64,000 bases of DNA. It comes from Desulfobacterales bacterium (GTDB lineage Bacteria; Desulfobacterota; Desulfobacteria; Desulfobacterales; UBA2156). The position numbers were made by a program, and so were the translations under genes. Below, in pieces: positions 20,721-38,335 of the stretch. Below the pieces are notes generated by a model. It was not told the DNA's origin, ran no database searches, and saw nothing but the letters and a program-made list of their open reading frames with translations. Position 1 is the first letter of the stretch. The number at the start of each line of letters is the position of its first letter. Location: positions 797 through 64,796 of the forward strand of contig DRHF01000057.1 of NCBI GenBank assembly GCA_011049715.1, given 5' to 3'.

Positions 20721-20846
20721 AAATGATAACTCTTAAAAGGTTTTGTGCCGTCGGCAAAGCGCTCATCATTAATTTTTTTCAGAAAAATTTCTTTTTACCC
20801 TATGCCTGATGCGACTTTCCTTAAAATATCAGGTGCAAAACTTGAG
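20721..20846 (+). repeat. R1 intergenic repeat (about 125 nt), copy 1
   Basis: About 94% identical by hand alignment (6 substitutions, one 1-nt indel) to 24531-24655. Ends in GGTGCAAAACTTGAG. Confidence 0.9.
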
Positions 20847-21996: not shown

Positions 21997-23271
21997 ATGT
22001 CAAAATTGGTTCCACCCCATGGCGGGAAAGGGTTGGCCATCTGCCTGCTGGAGGGCGATGAACTGGCTACAGAAAAGCAAAAAGCGGTGGGATTAAAAAA
22101 AATAACCATCTCACAACGGGTGAAAGGTGATTTGATAATGATCGGTATCGGTGGATTCAGTCCACTGACCGGTTTTATGACGAAAGCCGATTGGAAACGC
22201 GTCTGCGAGGAGTTCCTGCTGGCTGATGGCACCTTCTGGCCGGTGCCGGTCACTTTGGATGTAGCCGGGAAAGAGGCGGTTACCGTCAGTGAAGGGGATG
22301 AAATTGCCTTATTCGATCCGAAGAACGACGAGACCATGGCCACAATGAAAGTCACTGAAAAGTTCAAGCTTACCGAAACGGACAAAAAATGGGAATGTGA
22401 AAAGGTCTTCATGGGTGAAGGAACCCCCACTAAAGATGAGTTTTGGAAAGTCGCAACGGAGGATCACCCGGGTGTCCGGATGGTCATGGACCAGGAGGAA
22501 TTCTACTTTGCCGGACCCGTCAAGGTTCTTAGTGAAGGGGAATACCCAACCAAATACGCCGGTGTCTACCATCGCCCGGCGGAATCCAGACAAATCTTTG
22601 AGGATAATGGCTGGAGCGATGTCGCCGCCCTGCAACTTAGAAATCCCATGCACCGCTCCCACGAATACCTCTGCAAAATCGCTGTCGAAGTATGCGATGG
22701 TGTCTACATCCACTCTCTGGTCGGCAACCTGAAGCCGGGCGACATCCCGGCTGAGGTCAGGGTAAAGTGCATCGATACCTTGGTGAAAAACTACTTCGTT
22801 GCGGCCAATGTCGTACAGGGCGGCTATCCGCTTGACATGAGATATGCCGGACCCAGAGAAGGTTTGCTACATGCAACTTTCCGGCAAAACTACGGCTGTT
22901 CCAAAATGATTATCGGCCGGGACCATGCCGGGGTGGGTGATTTCTACGGGATGTTCGAGGCACAGACAATCTTCGACAAAATCCCTAAGCCCGAACAACC
23001 CGGGCGGGCTTTGCTTTGCACACCGTTAAAGATCGACTGGACCTTCTATTGCTCTAAATGTGATGGAATGGCATCCCTTAGAACCTGCCCTCATGAAAAA
23101 GAAGACAGGATACTACTCAGCGGGACCATGCTGCGCAAGCTGCTTTCTGAGGGCGGCAAGATTCCGGATCACTTCGGTCGGGATGAAGTTCTGGTCATTC
23201 TTCGAGAGTATTACAAGGGTTTGACTGAAAAGGTTGAAATCAAGACCCACCGGGCGGCTACCGGCACCTGA
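21997..23271 (+). CDS. sat: sulfate adenylyltransferase (ATP sulfurylase)
   Basis: 424 aa with motifs [11 protein letters not shown] and [17 protein letters not shown]. Confidence 0.95.
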
Positions 23272-23368: not shown

Positions 23369-24502
23369 TTACATTCTGCCCGTGTATTCGTTATAGGCAA
23401 GAGCGGTCGTACGGTATACCAGGTGTGCCAACATGGAAAACGGCGTGTAGGCAAATAGGCAAAAAACAAACATCAGATGGACAAAATAGATAAAATAGGA
23501 TAGTTCGCCCCATCCAGCCAGTCTTGTTATTTCCGTTAACATGCCCGAAAGACCCAAAGCCAGTGCTAGCCCCAGCAGGTACCAATCCTTATAAATAGAG
23601 AACTGGTCGGTTTTGACCAACCGATTTTTGATCATGAGGCTGCTGCCGACAATCAAGGCGACGCCACTGATATTGGCAAGCCATTTTACCGGGTTCAGCT
23701 GCGAATAGGGGCCGTGATTTTGAAAGCCATAAATGGCAAAAAAGAAAATACTGGTAACCATAAAAAGCCCGATAAATCCGAATAGAACCATCATGTGGGT
23801 CAGTTCACGGTCCTTGTTTTCAGAACAATCTGAAAACTTGGTATGTTTGAGAATAGTCGGAATCACACGGAAAAAAGCCAGGATAAATCCGGCGGGTTCG
23901 ATCTCTTTTTTCTCGGTTTTTCCCTCCATCAGTGCATTTTGATGGATATCCTTCAAAAAGCGTTTGAGACCCAATGCAAAAATGGCGACGGCCCAAAAAA
24001 CGGCCGGAATCATGACAAGATCGACCAGCCAGGTGGAAAAGAACTTGGCGTGTACAATTTCGTCTCCTTCCGGCGAAAAATTGAGCAAACCGGTCACGAG
24101 ACCCAGAACCAGGAATAAAATAGCGGGGATTGCCAACAAAATAGGCAAAAATTTCGGGTTATTTACTGCTTTTTCCAAGAATTTGGGGGCGGCGTATTCG
24201 GTAATGGCCAATGATCGGAGTGCCCCGAGAACATCCCCGGGTTTGGCACCGCGCGGGCAATTTGTGGTGCAATCGCCGCAATTGTGGCACAACCAGATAT
24301 CCGGGCTGCCAATCAATCTATCCTTCAGTCCCCATGATGCGGCAACCATTTCCTTTCTGGGAAAGGGTTTGTTGTCCGGAGAAATGGGACAGATGACCGA
24401 ACAGGTAGCGCATTGATAGCACTTTTTCAAATCTTCGCCGCCAAACGCGCCAATTTTTTTGATAAAATCTAAATCAGGTTCAATATGGTACCTCTGCGCC
24501 AT
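23369..24502 (-). CDS. qmoC: quinone-interacting membrane-bound oxidoreductase subunit C
   Basis: 377 aa. N-terminal HdrC-like motifs CYQCATCSVICP and CHNCGDCTTNCP, followed by a multi-TM haem-b (HdrE/NarI-like) domain. Last gene of the apr-qmo string. Confidence 0.9.
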   Translation of the reverse strand: MAQRYHIEPDLDFIKKIGAFGGEDLKKCYQCATCSVICPISPDNKPFPRKEMVAASWGLKDRLIGSPDIWLCHNCGDCTTNCPRGAKPGDVLGALRSLAITEYAAPKFLEKAVNNPKFLPILLAIPAILFLVLGLVTGLLNFSPEGDEIVHAKFFSTWLVDLVMIPAVFWAVAIFALGLKRFLKDIHQNALMEGKTEKKEIEPAGFILAFFRVIPTILKHTKFSDCSENKDRELTHMMVLFGFIGLFMVTSIFFFAIYGFQNHGPYSQLNPVKWLANISGVALIVGSSLMIKNRLVKTDQFSIYKDWYLLGLALALGLSGMLTEITRLAGWGELSYFIYFVHLMFVFCLFAYTPFSMLAHLVYRTTALAYNEYTGRM

Positions 24503-24530
24503 ATTTAGAGCTCCTATGACTACATTAAAA

Positions 24531-24655
24531 AATGATAACTCTTAAAAGGTTTTGTGCCGTTGTCAAAGCGCTCATCATCAATTTTTCCAGAAAAATTTCT
24601 TTTTACCCGATGCCTGATGCGACTTTCCTTAAAATATCAGGTGCGAAACTTGAGT
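24531..24655 (+). repeat. R1 intergenic repeat, copy 2 (between qmoB and qmoC, antisense to the operon)
   Basis: AAATGATAACTCTTAAAAGGTTTTGTGCCGTTGTCAAAGCGCTCATCATC...CCTTAAAATATCAGGTGCGAAACTTGAG. It accounts for most of the 201-nt qmoB-qmoC spacer. Confidence 0.9.
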
Positions 24656-24703
24656 AAAAACTCTGACTTAACCCAACGGTCCTCCATCGAAAATCTTCAA
24701 TTT

Positions 24704-26005
24704 CTAGAATCCTTTGAACGGGTTTGGACCCATTTCCTCTATACTGGCGACGAAATCATCAATGATCTGGGGAAGTTTATCATATTCATCGATCGTCACC
24801 TGGAATTGCATCACTCGCTCTTCTTCAAGGGCTAAGCTCGACAGAGCCTCACCGATCTTTTTCATCCTTACATCGGCGAGTTCGCTTCCTTTTACGAAGT
24901 GACACTGATAATCATCCCCGTGCTTGCACCCCAGAAGAAAAACCCCGTCCAGTCCCTGGGCGAGGGCATCTTTAATCCAAATCACGTTCACCGATCCAAG
25001 ACATCTAACCGCGATAATCCGGACATCCGCAGAATAGCTGAGCCGGTTCAGCCCCACAATATCAAGGGCCGGATAGGCGTCATTTTCGCAAACCAGGGCC
25101 AAAATCCTCAACGGTGGTTCATCATAATCGTCTTCGGATGGCACGCCGATGGCTTTGACCATCGACCCGATACTATCGATACTGTAATCGGAAAAGTTGA
25201 TAATCCGTTCGGGGCAGCACCCCAGGCAGGTGCCACAGCGTCGACAGCGGGTCGGATTTGACTTTGGTGTCGCCTTCTCATCATCATCGATCGCTCCGAA
25301 AGGACATTCTTCAGTACACCGTTTGCACTGGGTACATCTTTGGAAGAAAAAGTCAGGAAAGGTCATATCACCGGATCTCGGGTGAACGGAAACGCCGCGG
25401 TTGACCGACTCTGTGCACTGAATGGCTTTTAGCACCGCACCAGCGGCATCCTCAATTGATTCTTCCACAGTCATAGAGCGCCGAATGGCGCCGGCAGCAT
25501 AAATTCCGGTCCGCTGCGTTTCATAGGGGAAACAGATAAAATTCGAGTCGGCATATTCATCAAAAATCGCATTATCCCGGAACCCCGGACCCTGCCGGTA
25601 AGCCAGGTTGACCACCGGGTCATCTTTGGTGACCGGGACCATGCCGGTGGCCAGTACAGCCAAATCGGCTTTGACCTGAACTTTTTCACCCAGCAGGGTG
25701 TTGTCGGCTTCAACAATCAGGCCATCCTCACCTTTGGAGATGCCGGTCACCTCTCCTTTGGTCAGAAATATACCTTCGTCCTGCTGGATACCCGCATAAA
25801 AATATTCTGTGAGGCCGAGTGTGCGCATATGCTGATAGAAGACAAAGGCCTTGCCGTCAGGATAATCTTCCCTTACATACTTGGCCTGTTTGAGTGCCAC
25901 CAGGCTGGTTACTGCGCCGGTATACTGAAAGTCTTTATCATCCCCCTGACCCGGGCTTTGGATGAAGACCACTGATTTAGCTTCCTTTCCGTCAGACGGT
26001 CTCAC
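24704..26005 (-). CDS. qmoB: QmoB, C-terminal part (ferredoxin + MvhD-like domains), downstream of an in-frame TAA
   Basis: 433-aa ORF from GTG 26005, in the same frame as 26027..27040. CTQCKRCTEECP and CRRCGTCLGCCP ferredoxin motifs, and a C-terminal MvhD-like block LLGCKHGDDYQCHF. Confidence 0.85.
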   Translation of the reverse strand: MRPSDGKEAKSVVFIQSPGQGDDKDFQYTGAVTSLVALKQAKYVREDYPDGKAFVFYQHMRTLGLTEYFYAGIQQDEGIFLTKGEVTGISKGEDGLIVEADNTLLGEKVQVKADLAVLATGMVPVTKDDPVVNLAYRQGPGFRDNAIFDEYADSNFICFPYETQRTGIYAAGAIRRSMTVEESIEDAAGAVLKAIQCTESVNRGVSVHPRSGDMTFPDFFFQRCTQCKRCTEECPFGAIDDDEKATPKSNPTRCRRCGTCLGCCPERIINFSDYSIDSIGSMVKAIGVPSEDDYDEPPLRILALVCENDAYPALDIVGLNRLSYSADVRIIAVRCLGSVNVIWIKDALAQGLDGVFLLGCKHGDDYQCHFVKGSELADVRMKKIGEALSSLALEEERVMQFQVTIDEYDKLPQIIDDFVASIEEMGPNPFKGF

Positions 26006-26026
26006 GATTTTACCGCTATGGGCAAT

Positions 26027-27040
26027 TTACTCAAACTGGCTGTTGGTAACAACATCCGGAATCTCGCCAAAACCGAGATGAGCAAATTCCCCTTCTTCAG
26101 GCTGATACGGCCGCCACCCGGCGGCCAGAATGACGGCACCGAACAATTCGCCGTCAGGGTCAATTGTCAAGATATCCCGTCTGCCTTTATTGTATTCCAG
26201 GAACCTTTCATGGACTTTTTCGGCATCAAGCTCTTTGCCGTTTTCATCAAACTTCATTTCATCCGGCAATGGAAAAGGAACATCAAATTCTATCTTTTCA
26301 CCGGGTTTTTTAAATGTCACGGTAAATGCGCCCGGTTGACCGGCAATCCGCGCAACCACAGTATCGGTTTTGACTGTTATTCTGGAATAGTTTTTGAGTT
26401 CTTCTATCTTGGATTCGATGGTTGGCGGAATCAGGCTGTCAAATACGTAAGGTCCCGGCAACTGCTTGCGCCATCTTTTGGCATGGCCTCCCAATGCAGA
26501 CTCCTTTTCGACGATTGTCACATCATAACCCAACTTTGCCGCATCGATGGCCGCTGTGATTCCGGTGATGCCGCCGCCGATAACCAGTATTTTTCGGCTG
26601 AGCGTTTCAAGTTTATAAGGCTCGGGCAGATCAATTTTTTCTACTTTGGCCATGCCCATTCTCAGATAATCTTCTGCCATCATTTGAACGTGATCAATGA
26701 ACTCTTCATCGTCTTTTTGTTCTTCGGTGGGCGCCGGATATTTTGTCCTGGGATGGGACCAGACCACCTGTTCTCTCAGATTTACCCGATCGACTATACA
26801 GCCGTCAAACCGGAAGACATCATAAAGTACCCGGCGCGAACAGGCTGCTATCACCAAGGTATTGACGCTTTCGTCAGCGATATCCTTATTGAGGATCTCA
26901 AGGCCTTCTATACTGCACAGAATCGGGGAAGTTTTCACCGAAAACCCTTTTTCTTTAGGCACCTCGATCAGCTTTTCAATATCGAGGGCTTCACCGATCC
27001 CACAACCTTCGCAGATATAAACACCATACTTTTTGTCCAT
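26027..27040 (-). CDS. qmoB: QmoB, N-terminal HdrA-like FAD domain, ended by an in-frame TAA
   Basis: 337 aa. CEGCGIGE N-terminus, FAD fold ILVIGGGITGITAA. Ends ...VVTNSQFE-TAA(26027-26029), and the same frame continues IAHSGKIVRPSDGK.... Confidence 0.85.
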   Translation of the reverse strand: MDKKYGVYICEGCGIGEALDIEKLIEVPKEKGFSVKTSPILCSIEGLEILNKDIADESVNTLVIAACSRRVLYDVFRFDGCIVDRVNLREQVVWSHPRTKYPAPTEEQKDDEEFIDHVQMMAEDYLRMGMAKVEKIDLPEPYKLETLSRKILVIGGGITGITAAIDAAKLGYDVTIVEKESALGGHAKRWRKQLPGPYVFDSLIPPTIESKIEELKNYSRITVKTDTVVARIAGQPGAFTVTFKKPGEKIEFDVPFPLPDEMKFDENGKELDAEKVHERFLEYNKGRRDILTIDPDGELFGAVILAAGWRPYQPEEGEFAHLGFGEIPDVVTNSQFE

Positions 27041-27050
27041 GTTTATCTTC

Positions 27051-28328
27051 CTAACGATTCATCAGGGTCTGAATAGCCTTTAGGGCAATACCGGTGGCAT
27101 TCTGGTTTGATGAAAACACATCTCTTGGTTTGTTGGCGCATCCCGCAGCAAACATTCCGCCTTTTTCAAAATCATTCATGATGAAACCGTCCTCGGTATA
27201 ATTCAAATCAGCGGCAGGCTTAGCAGCAGCGGCTGTTGGTTGTATCCCGGTGGCCAGTACCGCCATTTCCACCGTCTGTTCGATCTTTTCAGCGGTTATG
27301 GCATTCTCGGCAACCACTGTGATATCTTTGGTCTCCGGATCTTCACTCACTTGGGCCACCTTCCCTTTAATAAAAAAGACATTTTCATCTGTTTTGATTT
27401 TGCTGTAAAATTTTTCATACCGCTGACCCGGCGCCCTGACGTCGATATAGAATATATAAACCTTGGCATCCGGATACCTTTCTCTGATATATGTCGTATG
27501 TTTCAAGGAAGCCATACAGCAGATATACGAACAATACGGCAAGTAATTCTCGTCCCTTGAGCCCGCGCATTGAACAAAGGCCACACTTTGCGGTGCTTTA
27601 TCATCCGAAGGCCGCAGAATCTTTCCGGCAGTCGGCCCGTTTGGCGATGCCATCCGTTCCAGCATCATGTTGGTCACAACATTCGGATATGTCCCAAACC
27701 CGAGATTGTTTATCTTCTTTGCATCGTACGGCTCCCATCCTGTTGCCCAGACAATGGCGCCAACTTTCAAGCGGATTGTCTTTGCCTGCATTTCAAGATC
27801 AATCGCATCGTATTTGCAGGCTTTCCAACATCGCTTGGCATCCTCGGTTCCGATGATCAGGGGAGAAAGCGCATATCGGGCGGGAAAAGCCATCTCAAAG
27901 GGAAGATAAGCCCCCTTCATCTTGTTCATGCCGAAATTGAAATCATTGGGGATTTCTGTTTCACATGCAGTGGCGCATTCGCCACAGCAGGTACAGTTTT
28001 CATTTACATATCTGGGAGTTAGCCTTACCGAAACATCATAGTTTCCGGGTGCGCCGTCAACACGTTCAATTTCACCCAAGGTAAAAACCTTTATCCGTGG
28101 ATTGTCCTTAATTCTCCTAAAATTTATCTCAAGGCCGCAAGTCGGGGGACACAACTTGGGAAAGTATTGATTCAACTGCGAAACTCTTCCACCCAGATAA
28201 GGATTTTTTTCAACCAAAAAGACTTCATATCCAACTTCAGCCGCTTCGAGGGTTGTGGTCAAACCGCTGATCCCTCCGCCGACAACCAAGATACTGCCAT
28301 TGGCAGAAAGTATGTTCCCTTCTGTCAT
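27051..28328 (-). CDS. qmoA: quinone-interacting membrane-bound oxidoreductase subunit A (HdrA-like flavoprotein)
   Basis: 425 aa. ILVVGGGISGLTTT FAD fold. VVTNMMLERMASPNGPTAGKILRPSD HdrA-type block. Confidence 0.9.
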   Translation of the reverse strand: MTEGNILSANGSILVVGGGISGLTTTLEAAEVGYEVFLVEKNPYLGGRVSQLNQYFPKLCPPTCGLEINFRRIKDNPRIKVFTLGEIERVDGAPGNYDVSVRLTPRYVNENCTCCGECATACETEIPNDFNFGMNKMKGAYLPFEMAFPARYALSPLIIGTEDAKRCWKACKYDAIDLEMQAKTIRLKVGAIVWATGWEPYDAKKINNLGFGTYPNVVTNMMLERMASPNGPTAGKILRPSDDKAPQSVAFVQCAGSRDENYLPYCSYICCMASLKHTTYIRERYPDAKVYIFYIDVRAPGQRYEKFYSKIKTDENVFFIKGKVAQVSEDPETKDITVVAENAITAEKIEQTVEMAVLATGIQPTAAAAKPAADLNYTEDGFIMNDFEKGGMFAAGCANKPRDVFSSNQNATGIALKAIQTLMNR

Positions 28329-28464: not shown

Positions 28465-30444
28465 TTAGTCCGAAATGATTTTGATGTAATCTTTTTTAAA
28501 AACATCCCACTTTCCGGTTTTCGGATCATACTTGGAGTTGCTGAAACAGAACCAGTTCTCGTCATCCGTGTTCGGATAGTCCATCTGATAATAGAATCCA
28601 GGATAACGGGTTTCCTTACGGAACTGGATATGACGTAGATGGGATTCAACGGTCCAGATACGGTGATAGATTTCCCATGCCCTCATCAGTTCGTGGAGGT
28701 CGCCGGCCGCCAGTTTCTCGCAGTCCTCCCGCATGCAGTGCAGGAGTTCCATGACGATCTCAAGATTTTTATTGTTGGTTGTATAGAATGTCGCCGTACC
28801 GGCGCCATACTCATTGGTGGCCTTCATCATGCGATACATCATCCCGTTGGGTTTGATGTAGTTGGGGTTAATGTCATCCGCCGTGGTGTACTCACAATGA
28901 TCAAGGTATACTCTGACCGGCCTATAGATCAAATCCACCAGTTCTTGACTGGTTTGATTAATACTCGGCGTGAAGTCGGCATGATCACGGGCGTATCTAA
29001 CCATTGATTTACCAGCCAGCCTTCCTTCGGTATGGGATCCGGAAGAAAACTTATGGCCCGAACAGCCCACACCATCTCCGGCCGTAAACAGTCCATTGAC
29101 CGTCGTCATACGGTTGTAAATCTTGCCGTTGTCTGCTTTGACCTTGTAAGCATCCGGGACCCAGTCATAGTCCGGCCCGGAAACCCAGAAGCCACAGCAG
29201 CCGGAATGGGATCCAAGCAGGTAGGGTTCTGTAGGCATCACTTCGGAATTCTTATTCTCCGGCTCGGTGTTGGTTGCACACCAGAGATTGGCCTGGCCGC
29301 AGGTCATGTCTAGAAAATCTTCCCAGGCTTCCGACTCTATATGCCTGAGCTCTCTCTTACTCAAACCCTCGCCCAGCTTTGCCATTGCTGAAACCGTATC
29401 CATTATGATGGGACCGCGACCTTCTTGCATTTCGAAAAGCATAAGGTGGTTTCGCAGACACGTTGGCGTGATGGCTGCGGTTCCATAAGGCGCATACTTT
29501 TCAAGTTCGGCCTTGGCGGCATCACTCTCCACATAAGACTCGCCCAGACCGTTGAGTGCCTTGGCCTTGAACAGCAGGAACCATGCCCCCACCGGCCCGT
29601 ATCCGTCTTTAAAACGGGCCGGGGTGAAACGGTTTTCCATCATGGAAAGCTCGGCCCCCACTTTCATCCCCAGGGTATAGGTGGAGCCGGAGTTCCATAC
29701 CGGATACCAGGCACGGCCCTTGCCCTCACCCACTGATCTGGGCTGATAGATGTTTACCGCGCCGCCGCAGGCAATAAGCATGCTTTTACATTTGATGATG
29801 TAAACCTTGTTTTCACGGACGGAAAAACCGACGGCGCCGGCGATTTGATTCTCCTTGTCGGCATCTAGGAGAAGCTCAACAATGAAAACACGTTCTAAAA
29901 TGTTATCTTCCCCGATGGAAAGCTTGGCCGCTTCTGCGACAATCCGTTTGTAGGACTCACCGTTGATCATGATTTGCCACTTGCCCGTGCGAACAGGGGC
30001 GGCGCCGGATTTTAGTGTTCCCATTGACTGGCCTTTTTTACCATCCAGATTTTTCCCCTCTTGAGTTTTTTTCCAGATCGGAAGCCCCCATTCCTCAAAC
30101 AGATGGACAGAATCATCGACATGACAACCCAGATCAAAGATCAGGTCTTCACGAACGATGCCCATCAGGTCGTTTCGAACCATTCGCACGTAATCGTCAG
30201 GCGTATTATCGCCAATATAGGTGTTGATAGCGGAAAGACCCTGGGCAACCGCACCGCTTCTCTCCATGGCGGCTTTATCAACAATCAGGATCGTCTGGTC
30301 ATCAGACATCCATTTCCTGACTTCAAAAGCAGCACCACAGGCAGCCATCCCTCCACCCACGATCAGCATATCGACCTCACGCTCCTCAACTTCGGGATCT
30401 CTCACAGTCTTGGTTTCGCCTTTTGGTCTATTTGGTAATGTCAT
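28465..30444 (-). CDS. aprA: adenylylsulfate (APS) reductase alpha subunit
   Basis: 659 aa. FAD fold DMLIVGGGMAACGAAFE, fumarate-reductase-like flavoprotein, directly downstream of aprB. Confidence 0.95.
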   Translation of the reverse strand: MTLPNRPKGETKTVRDPEVEEREVDMLIVGGGMAACGAAFEVRKWMSDDQTILIVDKAAMERSGAVAQGLSAINTYIGDNTPDDYVRMVRNDLMGIVREDLIFDLGCHVDDSVHLFEEWGLPIWKKTQEGKNLDGKKGQSMGTLKSGAAPVRTGKWQIMINGESYKRIVAEAAKLSIGEDNILERVFIVELLLDADKENQIAGAVGFSVRENKVYIIKCKSMLIACGGAVNIYQPRSVGEGKGRAWYPVWNSGSTYTLGMKVGAELSMMENRFTPARFKDGYGPVGAWFLLFKAKALNGLGESYVESDAAKAELEKYAPYGTAAITPTCLRNHLMLFEMQEGRGPIIMDTVSAMAKLGEGLSKRELRHIESEAWEDFLDMTCGQANLWCATNTEPENKNSEVMPTEPYLLGSHSGCCGFWVSGPDYDWVPDAYKVKADNGKIYNRMTTVNGLFTAGDGVGCSGHKFSSGSHTEGRLAGKSMVRYARDHADFTPSINQTSQELVDLIYRPVRVYLDHCEYTTADDINPNYIKPNGMMYRMMKATNEYGAGTATFYTTNNKNLEIVMELLHCMREDCEKLAAGDLHELMRAWEIYHRIWTVESHLRHIQFRKETRYPGFYYQMDYPNTDDENWFCFSNSKYDPKTGKWDVFKKDYIKIISD

Positions 30445-30512: not shown

Positions 30513-30950
30513 TTAAACCGTTGCAGCAGGCTTTGGGATTTCATATCCATCTGCCTCTTCTGTGGAAAGCAAACCACTCTCGAGGTCTTTTCCCTTCAGG
30601 TCCTGATAGGCGTTGGCGGTGCCTTCAGGTGTTGTCCGTATGGGGAACTTAAAACGTTTGATGTTTCCGTTCCTGAATTTGCAGGTCCACATGACGTCTT
30701 CTGTACCCAACATCGGCATGATGCTGCTTCCAAGCGGCACAAAGTCGGAATAACCCCTCACCTCGATGGCCTGGGTGGGACAGATTTTTACGCATGAAAA
30801 ACATTCCCAGCACTGATCAGGCTCTTGATTGTATGCCTTCATGGTATTGGCCTCAAGCACCATCAGATCGTTGGGGCAAATGTACATGCAAGCTGTCTTG
30901 TCTCCGCCTTTGCACCCGTCACATTTTTCATCGATCACAAAACTTGGCAT
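30513..30950 (-). CDS. aprB: adenylylsulfate (APS) reductase beta subunit
   Basis: 145 aa. MPSFVIDEKCDGCKGGDKTACMYICPNDLM and CWECFSCVKICP, the two [4Fe-4S] motifs typical of AprB. Confidence 0.95.
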   Translation of the reverse strand: MPSFVIDEKCDGCKGGDKTACMYICPNDLMVLEANTMKAYNQEPDQCWECFSCVKICPTQAIEVRGYSDFVPLGSSIMPMLGTEDVMWTCKFRNGNIKRFKFPIRTTPEGTANAYQDLKGKDLESGLLSTEEADGYEIPKPAATV

Positions 30951-33118: not shown

Positions 33119-34105
33119 ATGCCTGCACTGATCATCCGCCGCATCATCCAGTCGGTTCTCGTTATGCTCACCGTTGCAGTGGTTGCTTTCACATTGTTTC
33201 GTTATGTGGGCGATCCTGTTTCTCAAATGGTTGGACAGGAAACAACCATCGCCGAGCGGGAACAACTCAGAGAAGACTTGGGGCTAAACGACCCGATCAT
33301 CGTTCAGTTTGCGCGTTTTGCCCTCAACACCGTTCAAGGCAAATTCGGCATCTCCTTTGCCCTCGGCCGCCCCGTCAACGAATTGTTTGCCGAGCGGCTC
33401 CCGGCCACTTTGGAATTGAGTTTGGTCGCTGCCTTATTTTCGCTGATAGTCGGGATTCCGATGGGGGTTTACACCGGTCTGTATCCGGATAGGGTTTTAA
33501 GCAAAGTCTTTCAAACGATTTCACTCATCGGCATCTCCTTGCCGACCTTTTTAATCGGGATCTTATTAATTCTTTTCTTTGGCGTCCTCTTGAGTTGGCT
33601 GCCGACCTTCGGTCGGGGGGACGTCATCCAGCTGGGTTGGTGGTCGACCGGGCTGCTGACCGCGAGCGGATTGAAAGCCATTGTTATGCCGGCCTTTACC
33701 CTCGGCATGTTTCAACTTACATTGATCATGCGCCTGGTGCGTTCGGAAATGATGGAGGTGCTGCGGACCGATTATATCAAATTTGCCCGGGCGCGCGGTT
33801 TGACCAATCGAGCGGTTAATTTCGGCCATGCCTTAAAAAATACCTTGGTCCCGGTCATTACCATCACCGGACTTCAACTGGGTTCGATTATTGCCTTTGC
33901 GATCATTACCGAAACCGTGTTTCAATGGCCGGGGATGGGGCTGTTGTTTCTTCAATCGATCCAATTTGCCGATGTCCCGGTGATGTCGACCTATCTCATT
34001 TTGATTGCCTTTTTCTTTGTCGTGATCAATTTGATTGTCGATATTCTCTATCACGTGGTGGACCCGCGTCTGAGATTTGATAAATCCGTGGTATCGAGCC
34101 ATTGA
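33119..34105 (+). CDS. ABC transporter permease (DppB/OppB-like)
   Basis: 328 aa. N-terminal IIRRIIQSVLVMLTV and a BPD_transp_1 core. Confidence 0.85.
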   Translation: MPALIIRRIIQSVLVMLTVAVVAFTLFRYVGDPVSQMVGQETTIAEREQLREDLGLNDPIIVQFARFALNTVQGKFGISFALGRPVNELFAERLPATLELSLVAALFSLIVGIPMGVYTGLYPDRVLSKVFQTISLIGISLPTFLIGILLILFFGVLLSWLPTFGRGDVIQLGWWSTGLLTASGLKAIVMPAFTLGMFQLTLIMRLVRSEMMEVLRTDYIKFARARGLTNRAVNFGHALKNTLVPVITITGLQLGSIIAFAIITETVFQWPGMGLLFLQSIQFADVPVMSTYLILIAFFFVVINLIVDILYHVVDPRLRFDKSVVSSH

Positions 34106-34106
34106 T

Positions 34107-35039
34107 ATGAAAAGTGTAGCGCGTATTCAGGATACCGTTCATCGATTTTTCGATTCCGATATCTGGTACAGTTTTAAAAAATCCAAAGTCACAATTGCAG
34201 CAGCATGTGTCACCGTCATAATGATCTTATCCGCATTTACGGCGCCTTGGATCGCGCCCCATAATACCTTTGATCCGGCCACGCTGGACCTTATGGATGC
34301 TTTCACGCCGCCGGCCTGGTACGAAGACGGAACATCAAAGTTTCTGCTCGGAACCGATGATCAGGGGCGGGATATCTTTTCAACAATCCTCTACGGATCG
34401 CGAATCTCACTGTTTGTCGCTTTTGCCTCCATGTTGCTGGCGATGCTTCTGGGGGTATCTCTTGGTTTGGTCTCCGGTTATCTCGGTGGTGCGATAGAAT
34501 CAATTATCATGCGGATCGCTGATGTGCTGATCAGTTTCCCGGCCATTCTCATTGTCTTGCTGATCAGTGGCGTTGCCCGAAGTGTGCTGCCCAATGTACG
34601 TCATGAAGAAATGGCGGTATGGGTTCTTATTTTTGCCATCGGCATCTCAAACTGGGTTCACTTTGCACGTACGGTGCGCGGTTCGACCATGGTGGAGAAG
34701 AACAAGGAGTATGTACAGGCTGCGCGCGTGATCGGACGCAGGCGCGCCACCATCATGTTCCGTCATATTTTGCCCAATGTGATGGGTCCCGTATTGGTCA
34801 TAGGAACGATCGGGCTGGCGGTTGCGGTCCTAACCGAGGCTACAATATCTTTTTTGGGTGTCGGTGTTCCGCCGACGGAACCCTCCTTGGGAACACTCAT
34901 TCGGATCGGTCAAAGCTTCCTCTTTGCCGGGGAATGGTGGATCGTGATTTTTCCCGGCGTTGCCCTGGCGATTTTAGTCCTGGCTGTCAACCTCCTGGGG
35001 GATTGGATGCGTGATGCCTTGAACCCAAAACTGAGATAA
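34107..35039 (+). CDS. ABC transporter permease (DppC/OppC-like)
   Basis: Track ORF 34077..35039. I chose ATG 34107, just after the upstream stop. LGTDDQGRDIFS block. Confidence 0.85.
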   Translation: MKSVARIQDTVHRFFDSDIWYSFKKSKVTIAAACVTVIMILSAFTAPWIAPHNTFDPATLDLMDAFTPPAWYEDGTSKFLLGTDDQGRDIFSTILYGSRISLFVAFASMLLAMLLGVSLGLVSGYLGGAIESIIMRIADVLISFPAILIVLLISGVARSVLPNVRHEEMAVWVLIFAIGISNWVHFARTVRGSTMVEKNKEYVQAARVIGRRRATIMFRHILPNVMGPVLVIGTIGLAVAVLTEATISFLGVGVPPTEPSLGTLIRIGQSFLFAGEWWIVIFPGVALAILVLAVNLLGDWMRDALNPKLR

Positions 35040-38235: not shown

Positions 38236-38335
38236 CTAGTTTCGCACCTGATATTTTAAGGAAAGTTGCATCAGGCATAGGGTAAAAAGAAATTTTTCTG
38301 AAAAAAATTAATGATGAGCGCTTTGACAAACAAAA
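38236..38335 (-). repeat. R1 intergenic repeat, copy 3 (5'-truncated), directly upstream of the amidohydrolase gene
   Basis: The reverse complement reads TTTTGTTTGTCAAAGCGCTCATCATTAATTTTTTTCAGAAAAATTTCTTTTTACCCTATGCCTGATGCAACTTTCCTTAAAATATCAGGTGCGAAACTAG. The box ends about 40 nt before the ATG at 38194. Confidence 0.9.

Follow-up and report, generated by a model that had tools for sequence, protein, structure and literature searches.

QmoABC passes electrons from the menaquinone pool to adenosine 5'-phosphosulfate (APS) reductase, QmoB being its HdrA-like flavo-iron-sulfur subunit, which works with QmoA, QmoC and AprAB as HdrA does with HdrBC. Here we analyzed a qmoB gene carrying an in-frame TAA in a 64,000-nucleotide stretch (the window) of contig DRHF01000057.1, which belongs to a third-party (TPA) metagenome-assembled genome (MAG) held at NCBI as 'MAG TPA' and assigned to a Desulfobacterales bacterium. 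The closest described system is the QmoB of Desulfovibrio-type QmoABC from sulfate-reducing Deltaproteobacteria, which has the same operon position, length (778 amino acids, aa) and domain order as the product obtained by reading through this stop. The read-through is 74-100% identical to hundreds of Desulfobacterales QmoB proteins, the TAA at codon 338 being the sole difference. Methanogen HdrA (5ODC, 7BKB, 8RVU) has flavin adenine dinucleotide (FAD) and C-terminal ferredoxin domains homologous to those of QmoB (E = 2e-46 to 7e-43) and can be aligned with the interrupted block; unlike HdrA, QmoB lacks the inserted ferredoxin domain and has a fused MvhD-like domain. A likeness of another kind is with MAG consensus errors or minor-allele calls that give apparent pseudogenes, where a private, isolated stop likewise stands in a conserved gene. 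In the present case, too, other assemblies of the population are without the stop, strains are mixed and at least one library was amplified by multiple displacement amplification (MDA); the qmoB of a related MAG (L013, see below) provides a second example.

The stop is present in this assembly, whereas no other assembly examined, not even one from the same strain, has it. The qmoB of the organism is most likely an ordinary uninterrupted gene of 778 codons; as to the cause of the TAA, we infer with a probability of roughly 55% that it is a technical artefact in the MAG consensus and not a real allele. The parts of the interrupted gene are as follows.

26030..27040, minus strand: qmoB 5' part, codons 1-337, with the N-terminal Cys-rich domain and the start of the HdrA-type FAD domain
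26027..26029, minus strand: in-frame TAA, codon 338 of qmoB, read from sequence and translation
24704..26026, minus strand: qmoB 3' part, codons 339-778 and TAG, with the remaining FAD domain, a 2x[4Fe-4S] ferredoxin domain and an MvhD/FlpD-like tail
26003..26005, minus strand: GTG, first in-frame start-type codon after the stop, without a Shine-Dalgarno sequence and not credible as an independent start

The minus strand around the site reads ...AAC AGC CAG TTT GAG TAA ATT GCC CAT AGC GGT AAA ATC GTG..., the TAA being one G to T change away from GAA (C to A at 26029 on the plus strand). The open reading frames (ORFs) 26027..27040 and 24704..26005 of this strand lie in one common frame, and reading through from 27040 to 24704 gives 779 codons, with 337 sense codons ahead of the TAA and 440 between it and a terminal TAG, i.e. 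a qmoB of 778 positions that matches the length of its orthologues (778 aa). An earlier inspection of the letters and their ORFs, here called the sequence-only reading, had proposed that a TAA at 26027-26029 splits qmoB, and sequence, shared frame and translation agree with it; the gene is also full-length as proposed, while the count of 777 codons left out the stop position and is corrected to 778.

In the 5' part, Pfam models of an FAD/NAD Rossmann domain matched at residues 150-200 (NAD_binding_8, DAO and Pyr_redox_2), and HdrA models matched as well (positions 2-240). The 3' part matched Fer4 families and, at the C-terminus, the MvhD/FlpD domain (PF02662, E = 3e-40); in the PDB it aligned to residues 329-651 of HdrA and to MvhD chains. 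The order HdrA-like FAD, 2x[4Fe-4S] ferredoxin and MvhD/FlpD-like domain is as expected for QmoB, and these Pfam and PDB matches support the three domains named in the sequence-only reading. The QmoB trait that fails in the window is the uninterrupted frame, broken by the TAA at codon 338; it holds in L082 and L081, two contigs of the same population described below. Alignment also bore out the proposed colinearity of QmoA and QmoB across the site ('VVTNMMLERMASPNGPTAGKILRPSD' versus 'VVTNSQFE[E]IAH-----SGKIVRPSD'), the stop position corresponding to the R of 'LER' in QmoA, and HdrA structures carry 'LELERM' at this position, inside a thioredoxin-reductase-like FAD domain.

The window was then compared with near-identical public contigs. 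Four Logan contigs from run SRR7787409 together span 38,179 bp of it. L083 (3,743 bp), L084 (16,360 bp) and L089 (4,882 bp) show no difference from the window (100% identity), whereas L082 (13,194 bp) has five, namely the stop site, position 34528 and three single-nucleotide polymorphisms of L081 type clustered at the contig end. Codon 338 is GAA (Glu) in L082, and its qmoB gene call runs for 655 aa up to the contig end with no stop. L081 is a 4.1-kb contig of ENA assembly ERZ940452 (run SRR1555744), 99.4% identical to the window over 3.6 kb, which also reads GAA, having G where the window has T. Its 778-aa QmoB (protein P0001) differs from the window read-through at E338 and T749S only. Since the same strain of this deep-sea sediment bacterium is intact in an independent assembly (L082) and L081 reads GAA as well, the gene is most likely normal. 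The sequence-only reading had named independent assemblies with a sense codon as the observation that would turn the split into an assembly matter; two such assemblies were found, both with GAA, and point to an ordinary intact qmoB. Compared with L081, the part of qmoB behind the stop shows 13 synonymous codon differences, one non-synonymous and no indels, which indicates no decay of the 3' half. A literature search for run SRR7787409 returned no mention of it.

Differences from L081 (window 24013-25607) are very unevenly spread along the locus. Leaving the stop aside, the opening 1,011 bp of qmoB are free of them, and qmoA has two; the last ~1.3 kb of qmoB has 17 nucleotide differences (1.3% in the 3' half) and qmoC differs by 4%. 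L082 is a mosaic of window-type and L081-type haplotypes. The population is strain-mixed, and the pattern points either to a boundary, of recombination or of haplotypes, midway through qmoB or to mosaic paths in the assembly.

Besides the stop site, one isolated difference separates the window from the Logan contigs of SRR7787409: at 34528, within the plus-strand ORF 34077-35039 for a DppC/OppC-like permease, the window has CTG (Leu) and Logan CAG (Gln), a radical transversion as well. Solved DppC proteins of E. coli and M. tuberculosis have Met or Phe at this conserved hydrophobic position, so that the odd allele is that of Logan. Private radical single-base changes are thus found in both assemblies, and isolated, deleterious-looking discrepancies of this kind appear as ordinary noise between assemblies.

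To place codon 338 among relatives, GTDB species representatives were scanned, giving 80 Desulfobacterales loci whose qmoB shows 74-86% identity at the amino-acid level. Compared with the query, qmoB is continuous in all 80; two are cut short, by contig ends alone, and the other 78 are full length. The aligned codon is a sense codon in every locus: GAA in 28, GAG in 30 and other sense codons (GCN, AAR, CAR, GGN, CGG) in 22, which translates into E in 58 relatives, A in 8, K in 7, Q in 4, G in 2 and R in 1. The orthologue alignment proposed to find the sense codon at the site therefore points mostly to Glu. The block around it is conserved (DVVTNxQFE-x-IAxxGKIxRPSDG) and the site itself variable, and so the earlier statement that the stop lies in a conserved HdrA-type motif is right for the block but not for the codon position (E in 58/80).

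Larger collections gave the same picture. The best 120 matches in a collection of 5.8 billion proteins are all 764-779 aa long, and QmoB proteins so named by JGI (778 aa) show 100% coverage and 82-100% identity to the read-through. The five closest homologues (P0001-P0005, 95-100% identical, P0002-P0005 being at 95-97%) read FEEIA(H/Y)SGKI at the site. The exact truncated products of 337 and 433 aa are on record in no public assembly. A degenerate pattern specific for TAA (DVVTNxQFE-TAA-IAxxGKI) had 0 matches in 241 M JGI metagenome records. A control pattern with GAR (Glu) matches 22 of the 82 fetched loci covering qmoB and so catches ~27% of relatives; among the fetched loci, the TAA pattern matches the window alone. 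A 50-mer with N at the variable base found no match in JGI metagenome contigs, which indicates that this strain is absent from that collection. The papers examined for a disrupted qmoB describe none.

As regards provenance, Sat, AprA, PheT and IF-2 of the window are identical to HEA65838.1, HEA65841.1, HEA65856.1 and HEA65861.1 ('MAG TPA', NCBI), encoded on a contig of 75,824 bp. Between sat (HEA65838) and aprA (HEA65841) the numbering leaves room for two proteins only, as many as qmoC and qmoA need; judging by this gap, NCBI appears to assign no protein to qmoB, i.e. to treat it as a pseudogene. PRJNA259156, the project that holds SRR1555744, is the Lokiarchaeum / Loki's Castle sediment project. 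The run itself is 'Loki_GC14_75_MG_MDA', with MDA as library selection (Zhou et al. 2020, Table S1, PMC6946796), and is among the SRA sets from which that study made third-party MAGs by MEGAHIT re-assembly.

If the TAA is a technical artefact, the GAA codon of Glu-338 would have become TAA by a single G to T change during production of the MAG. A candidate source is a damaged base that was miscopied and then propagated by amplification, which might involve MDA or G to T damage of the 8-oxoguanine type; a sequencing error at low depth is another, and in a de Bruijn graph of mixed strains the assembler may also have taken a path with little support. Several points weigh against an artefact. De Bruijn assemblers output only k-mers found in reads, and some of the source reads must therefore carry T at the site. 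Phi29 polymerase is of high fidelity, and a real minor allele would look identical from assemblies alone. Moreover, that the window is one of the MAGs of Zhou et al. is inferred from the accession series and from the population match of L086 and L090. These two contigs match the window at 99.96-99.97%.

The alternative that survives best is a real but unfixed nonsense allele (GAA to TAA), recently acquired by one of several co-existing sediment strains, the path of which was followed by the assembler; we regard it as possible, though somewhat doubtful. Besides the need for the assembled k-mers to exist in reads, it is consistent with the several qmoB haplotypes of the sample (the 3' half differs from that of L081 at 14 codons, and L082 is a mosaic) and with the apparent treatment of qmoB as a pseudogene by NCBI, as judged by the accession gap. 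However, neither of the two independent assemblies of the population has the T, nor does any public gene call, and the 5' half of the gene has no linked variants that would mark a separate haplotype. A genuine pseudogene should have its lesion backed by reads or independent assemblies, and, going by their sequences, the two population assemblies read GAA instead. Nor is relaxed selection seen downstream, given the 13 synonymous and one non-synonymous differences to L081 and the lack of indels. Zane et al. are said to have found in 2010 that deletion of qmoABC abolishes growth on sulfate; with such a phenotype, a strain that lacks a gene of its main energy pathway should be purged fast. Were the unfixed allele true, qmoB would be a very young pseudogene in that strain, and QmoABC-dependent APS reduction would be lost there unless a paralogue elsewhere compensates.

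A functional two-piece QmoB would require termination at the TAA and re-initiation 22 nt further on at GTG 26005, giving polypeptides of ~37 and ~48 kDa. Bacteria are known to re-initiate after termination at close start codons even where a strong Shine-Dalgarno sequence is lacking, and a 370-aa ORF in the chromosome CP070746.1 (see below) shows that N-terminal QmoB fragments can exist as ORFs, both of which speak for this option. Nevertheless, as the sequence-only reading had noted, there is no Shine-Dalgarno sequence before GTG 26005 in the upstream sequence tttgagtaaattgcccatagcggtaaaatc, unlike every genuine gene of the operon, aprB, aprA, qmoA, qmoB and qmoC each having a site of the AGGAGG/GGAGG/AGGA type. 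HdrA structures show the thioredoxin-reductase-like FAD domain as continuous, and the cut would fall inside it; seven residues (IAHSGKI) of the conserved block would go missing; moreover, the split is seen in no relative, and the same strain has an uninterrupted gene (L082). We thus consider a two-piece QmoB very unlikely, and the earlier suggestion of one finds neither a ribosome-binding site nor a split relative in its favor.

Decoding of the TAA by programmed readthrough or codon reassignment into a full-length QmoB, also suggested earlier, is hardly conceivable although the frame is perfectly kept across the stop and the product is of normal length, for it is effectively refuted by non-conservation and normal TAA usage: no relative shares the stop, which is not conserved in the 80 relatives, the five closest homologues or the JGI scan, with the best 120 matches full length; TAA terminates 15 of 42 long ORFs in the window, i.e. 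is an ordinary terminator; UAA is recognized by both release factors and leaks least among the stop codons; and TAA is not known to be reassigned in bacteria.

Taken together, a functional split gene and readthrough are still improbable. There is likewise very little chance that the TAA is real in one persisting Loki's Castle-type strain, having either a two-piece QmoB or a QmoB-free electron route to APS reductase; if true, this would make QmoB integrity dispensable in some natural sulfate reducers. The sequence-only reading had listed four options without committing to any of them: its gene identity stands, a technical error (of sequencing, amplification or assembly) is now favored with recent pseudogenisation second, and the two-piece and readthrough options are unsupported.

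An artefact and an unfixed allele have in common that neither would be new biology. A stop that was real and fixed would mean that a sulfate reducer lives with no intact Qmo complex; the evidence does not bear this out. Other assemblies or the reads should be checked before a single private stop in a MAG is taken for pseudogenisation, recoding or a split enzyme, a caution that is strongest for the third-party re-assembly of a strain-mixed, probably MDA-amplified sample; in the present case most of the matter could be settled by looking up near-identical public contigs.

The neighbors of qmoB in the window are listed below.

30513-30950, minus strand: aprB, intact (TIGR02060, 198.9 bits)
28465-30444, minus strand: aprA, intact (TIGR02061, 953.8 bits)
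27051..28328, minus strand: qmoA, intact, 425 aa; the exact protein is also on Logan contig L082 of SRR7787409
24530..24654, minus strand: copy of a ~125-bp dispersed repeat in the qmoB-qmoC spacer, found by BLAST
23369..24502, minus strand: qmoC, intact, 377 aa (NF038018, 500.7 bits, cut-off 300, covering all 360 model positions)
21997..23271, plus strand: sat (ATP sulfurylase), intact (PF01747, E = 8e-83, plus PUA_2)

These profile matches agree with the earlier statement that sat, aprBA, qmoA and qmoC are all intact, and the exact QmoC protein of the window is also found on a Logan contig of SRR7787409. The gene order on the minus strand is aprB-aprA-qmoA-qmoB-qmoC, with sat adjoining. Synteny is the same in the relatives L002, L005 and L010; relative L011 has qmoA-qmoB-qmoC and sat as in the window, with a partial aprB only and no aprA match. 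Three antisense ORFs over qmoB on the plus strand (26018-27076, 24554-24835 and 24899-25261) had no Pfam match and were set aside as shadow ORFs.

The ~125-bp repeat has further copies at 20721-20846 and 38238-38329, the three copies being 94% identical. It is missing from the qmoB-qmoC spacer of the 99.4%-identical contig L081, where the spacer measures 17 bp versus 120 bp in the window, and the ends of short-k Logan contigs coincide with copies of it. The repeat looks like a small mobile element, similar to a miniature inverted-repeat transposable element, and polymorphic among members of the population.

A private internal stop in qmoB was also seen in one of the 80 related copies, L013 (JBECKW010000198.1, Desulfobacterales MAG ETDI60), in which an in-frame TGA at nt 2717-2719 stands at Cys605 and replaces the third Cys of the second CxxCxxCxxxCP ferredoxin motif of QmoB. 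Selenocysteine was considered for this TGA and finds no support, the downstream RNA folding no better than shuffled sequences (z = -0.36) and showing no fold like a selenocysteine insertion sequence; it is probably another MAG-level lesion.

Finally, the chromosome of Desulfobacterales bin36 (CP070746.1, L001), the closest complete relative, has extra genes at nt 2-2120 and 2160-3712 of L001, among them a partial second qmoA (aa 95-425) and a 370-aa ORF in which QmoB residues 1-287 are followed by an unrelated tail. Two divergently oriented genes with CxxCxxCC domains come after these partial qmoA and qmoB copies, and the extra genes sit upstream of the full qmoABC, where other relatives carry aprBA.

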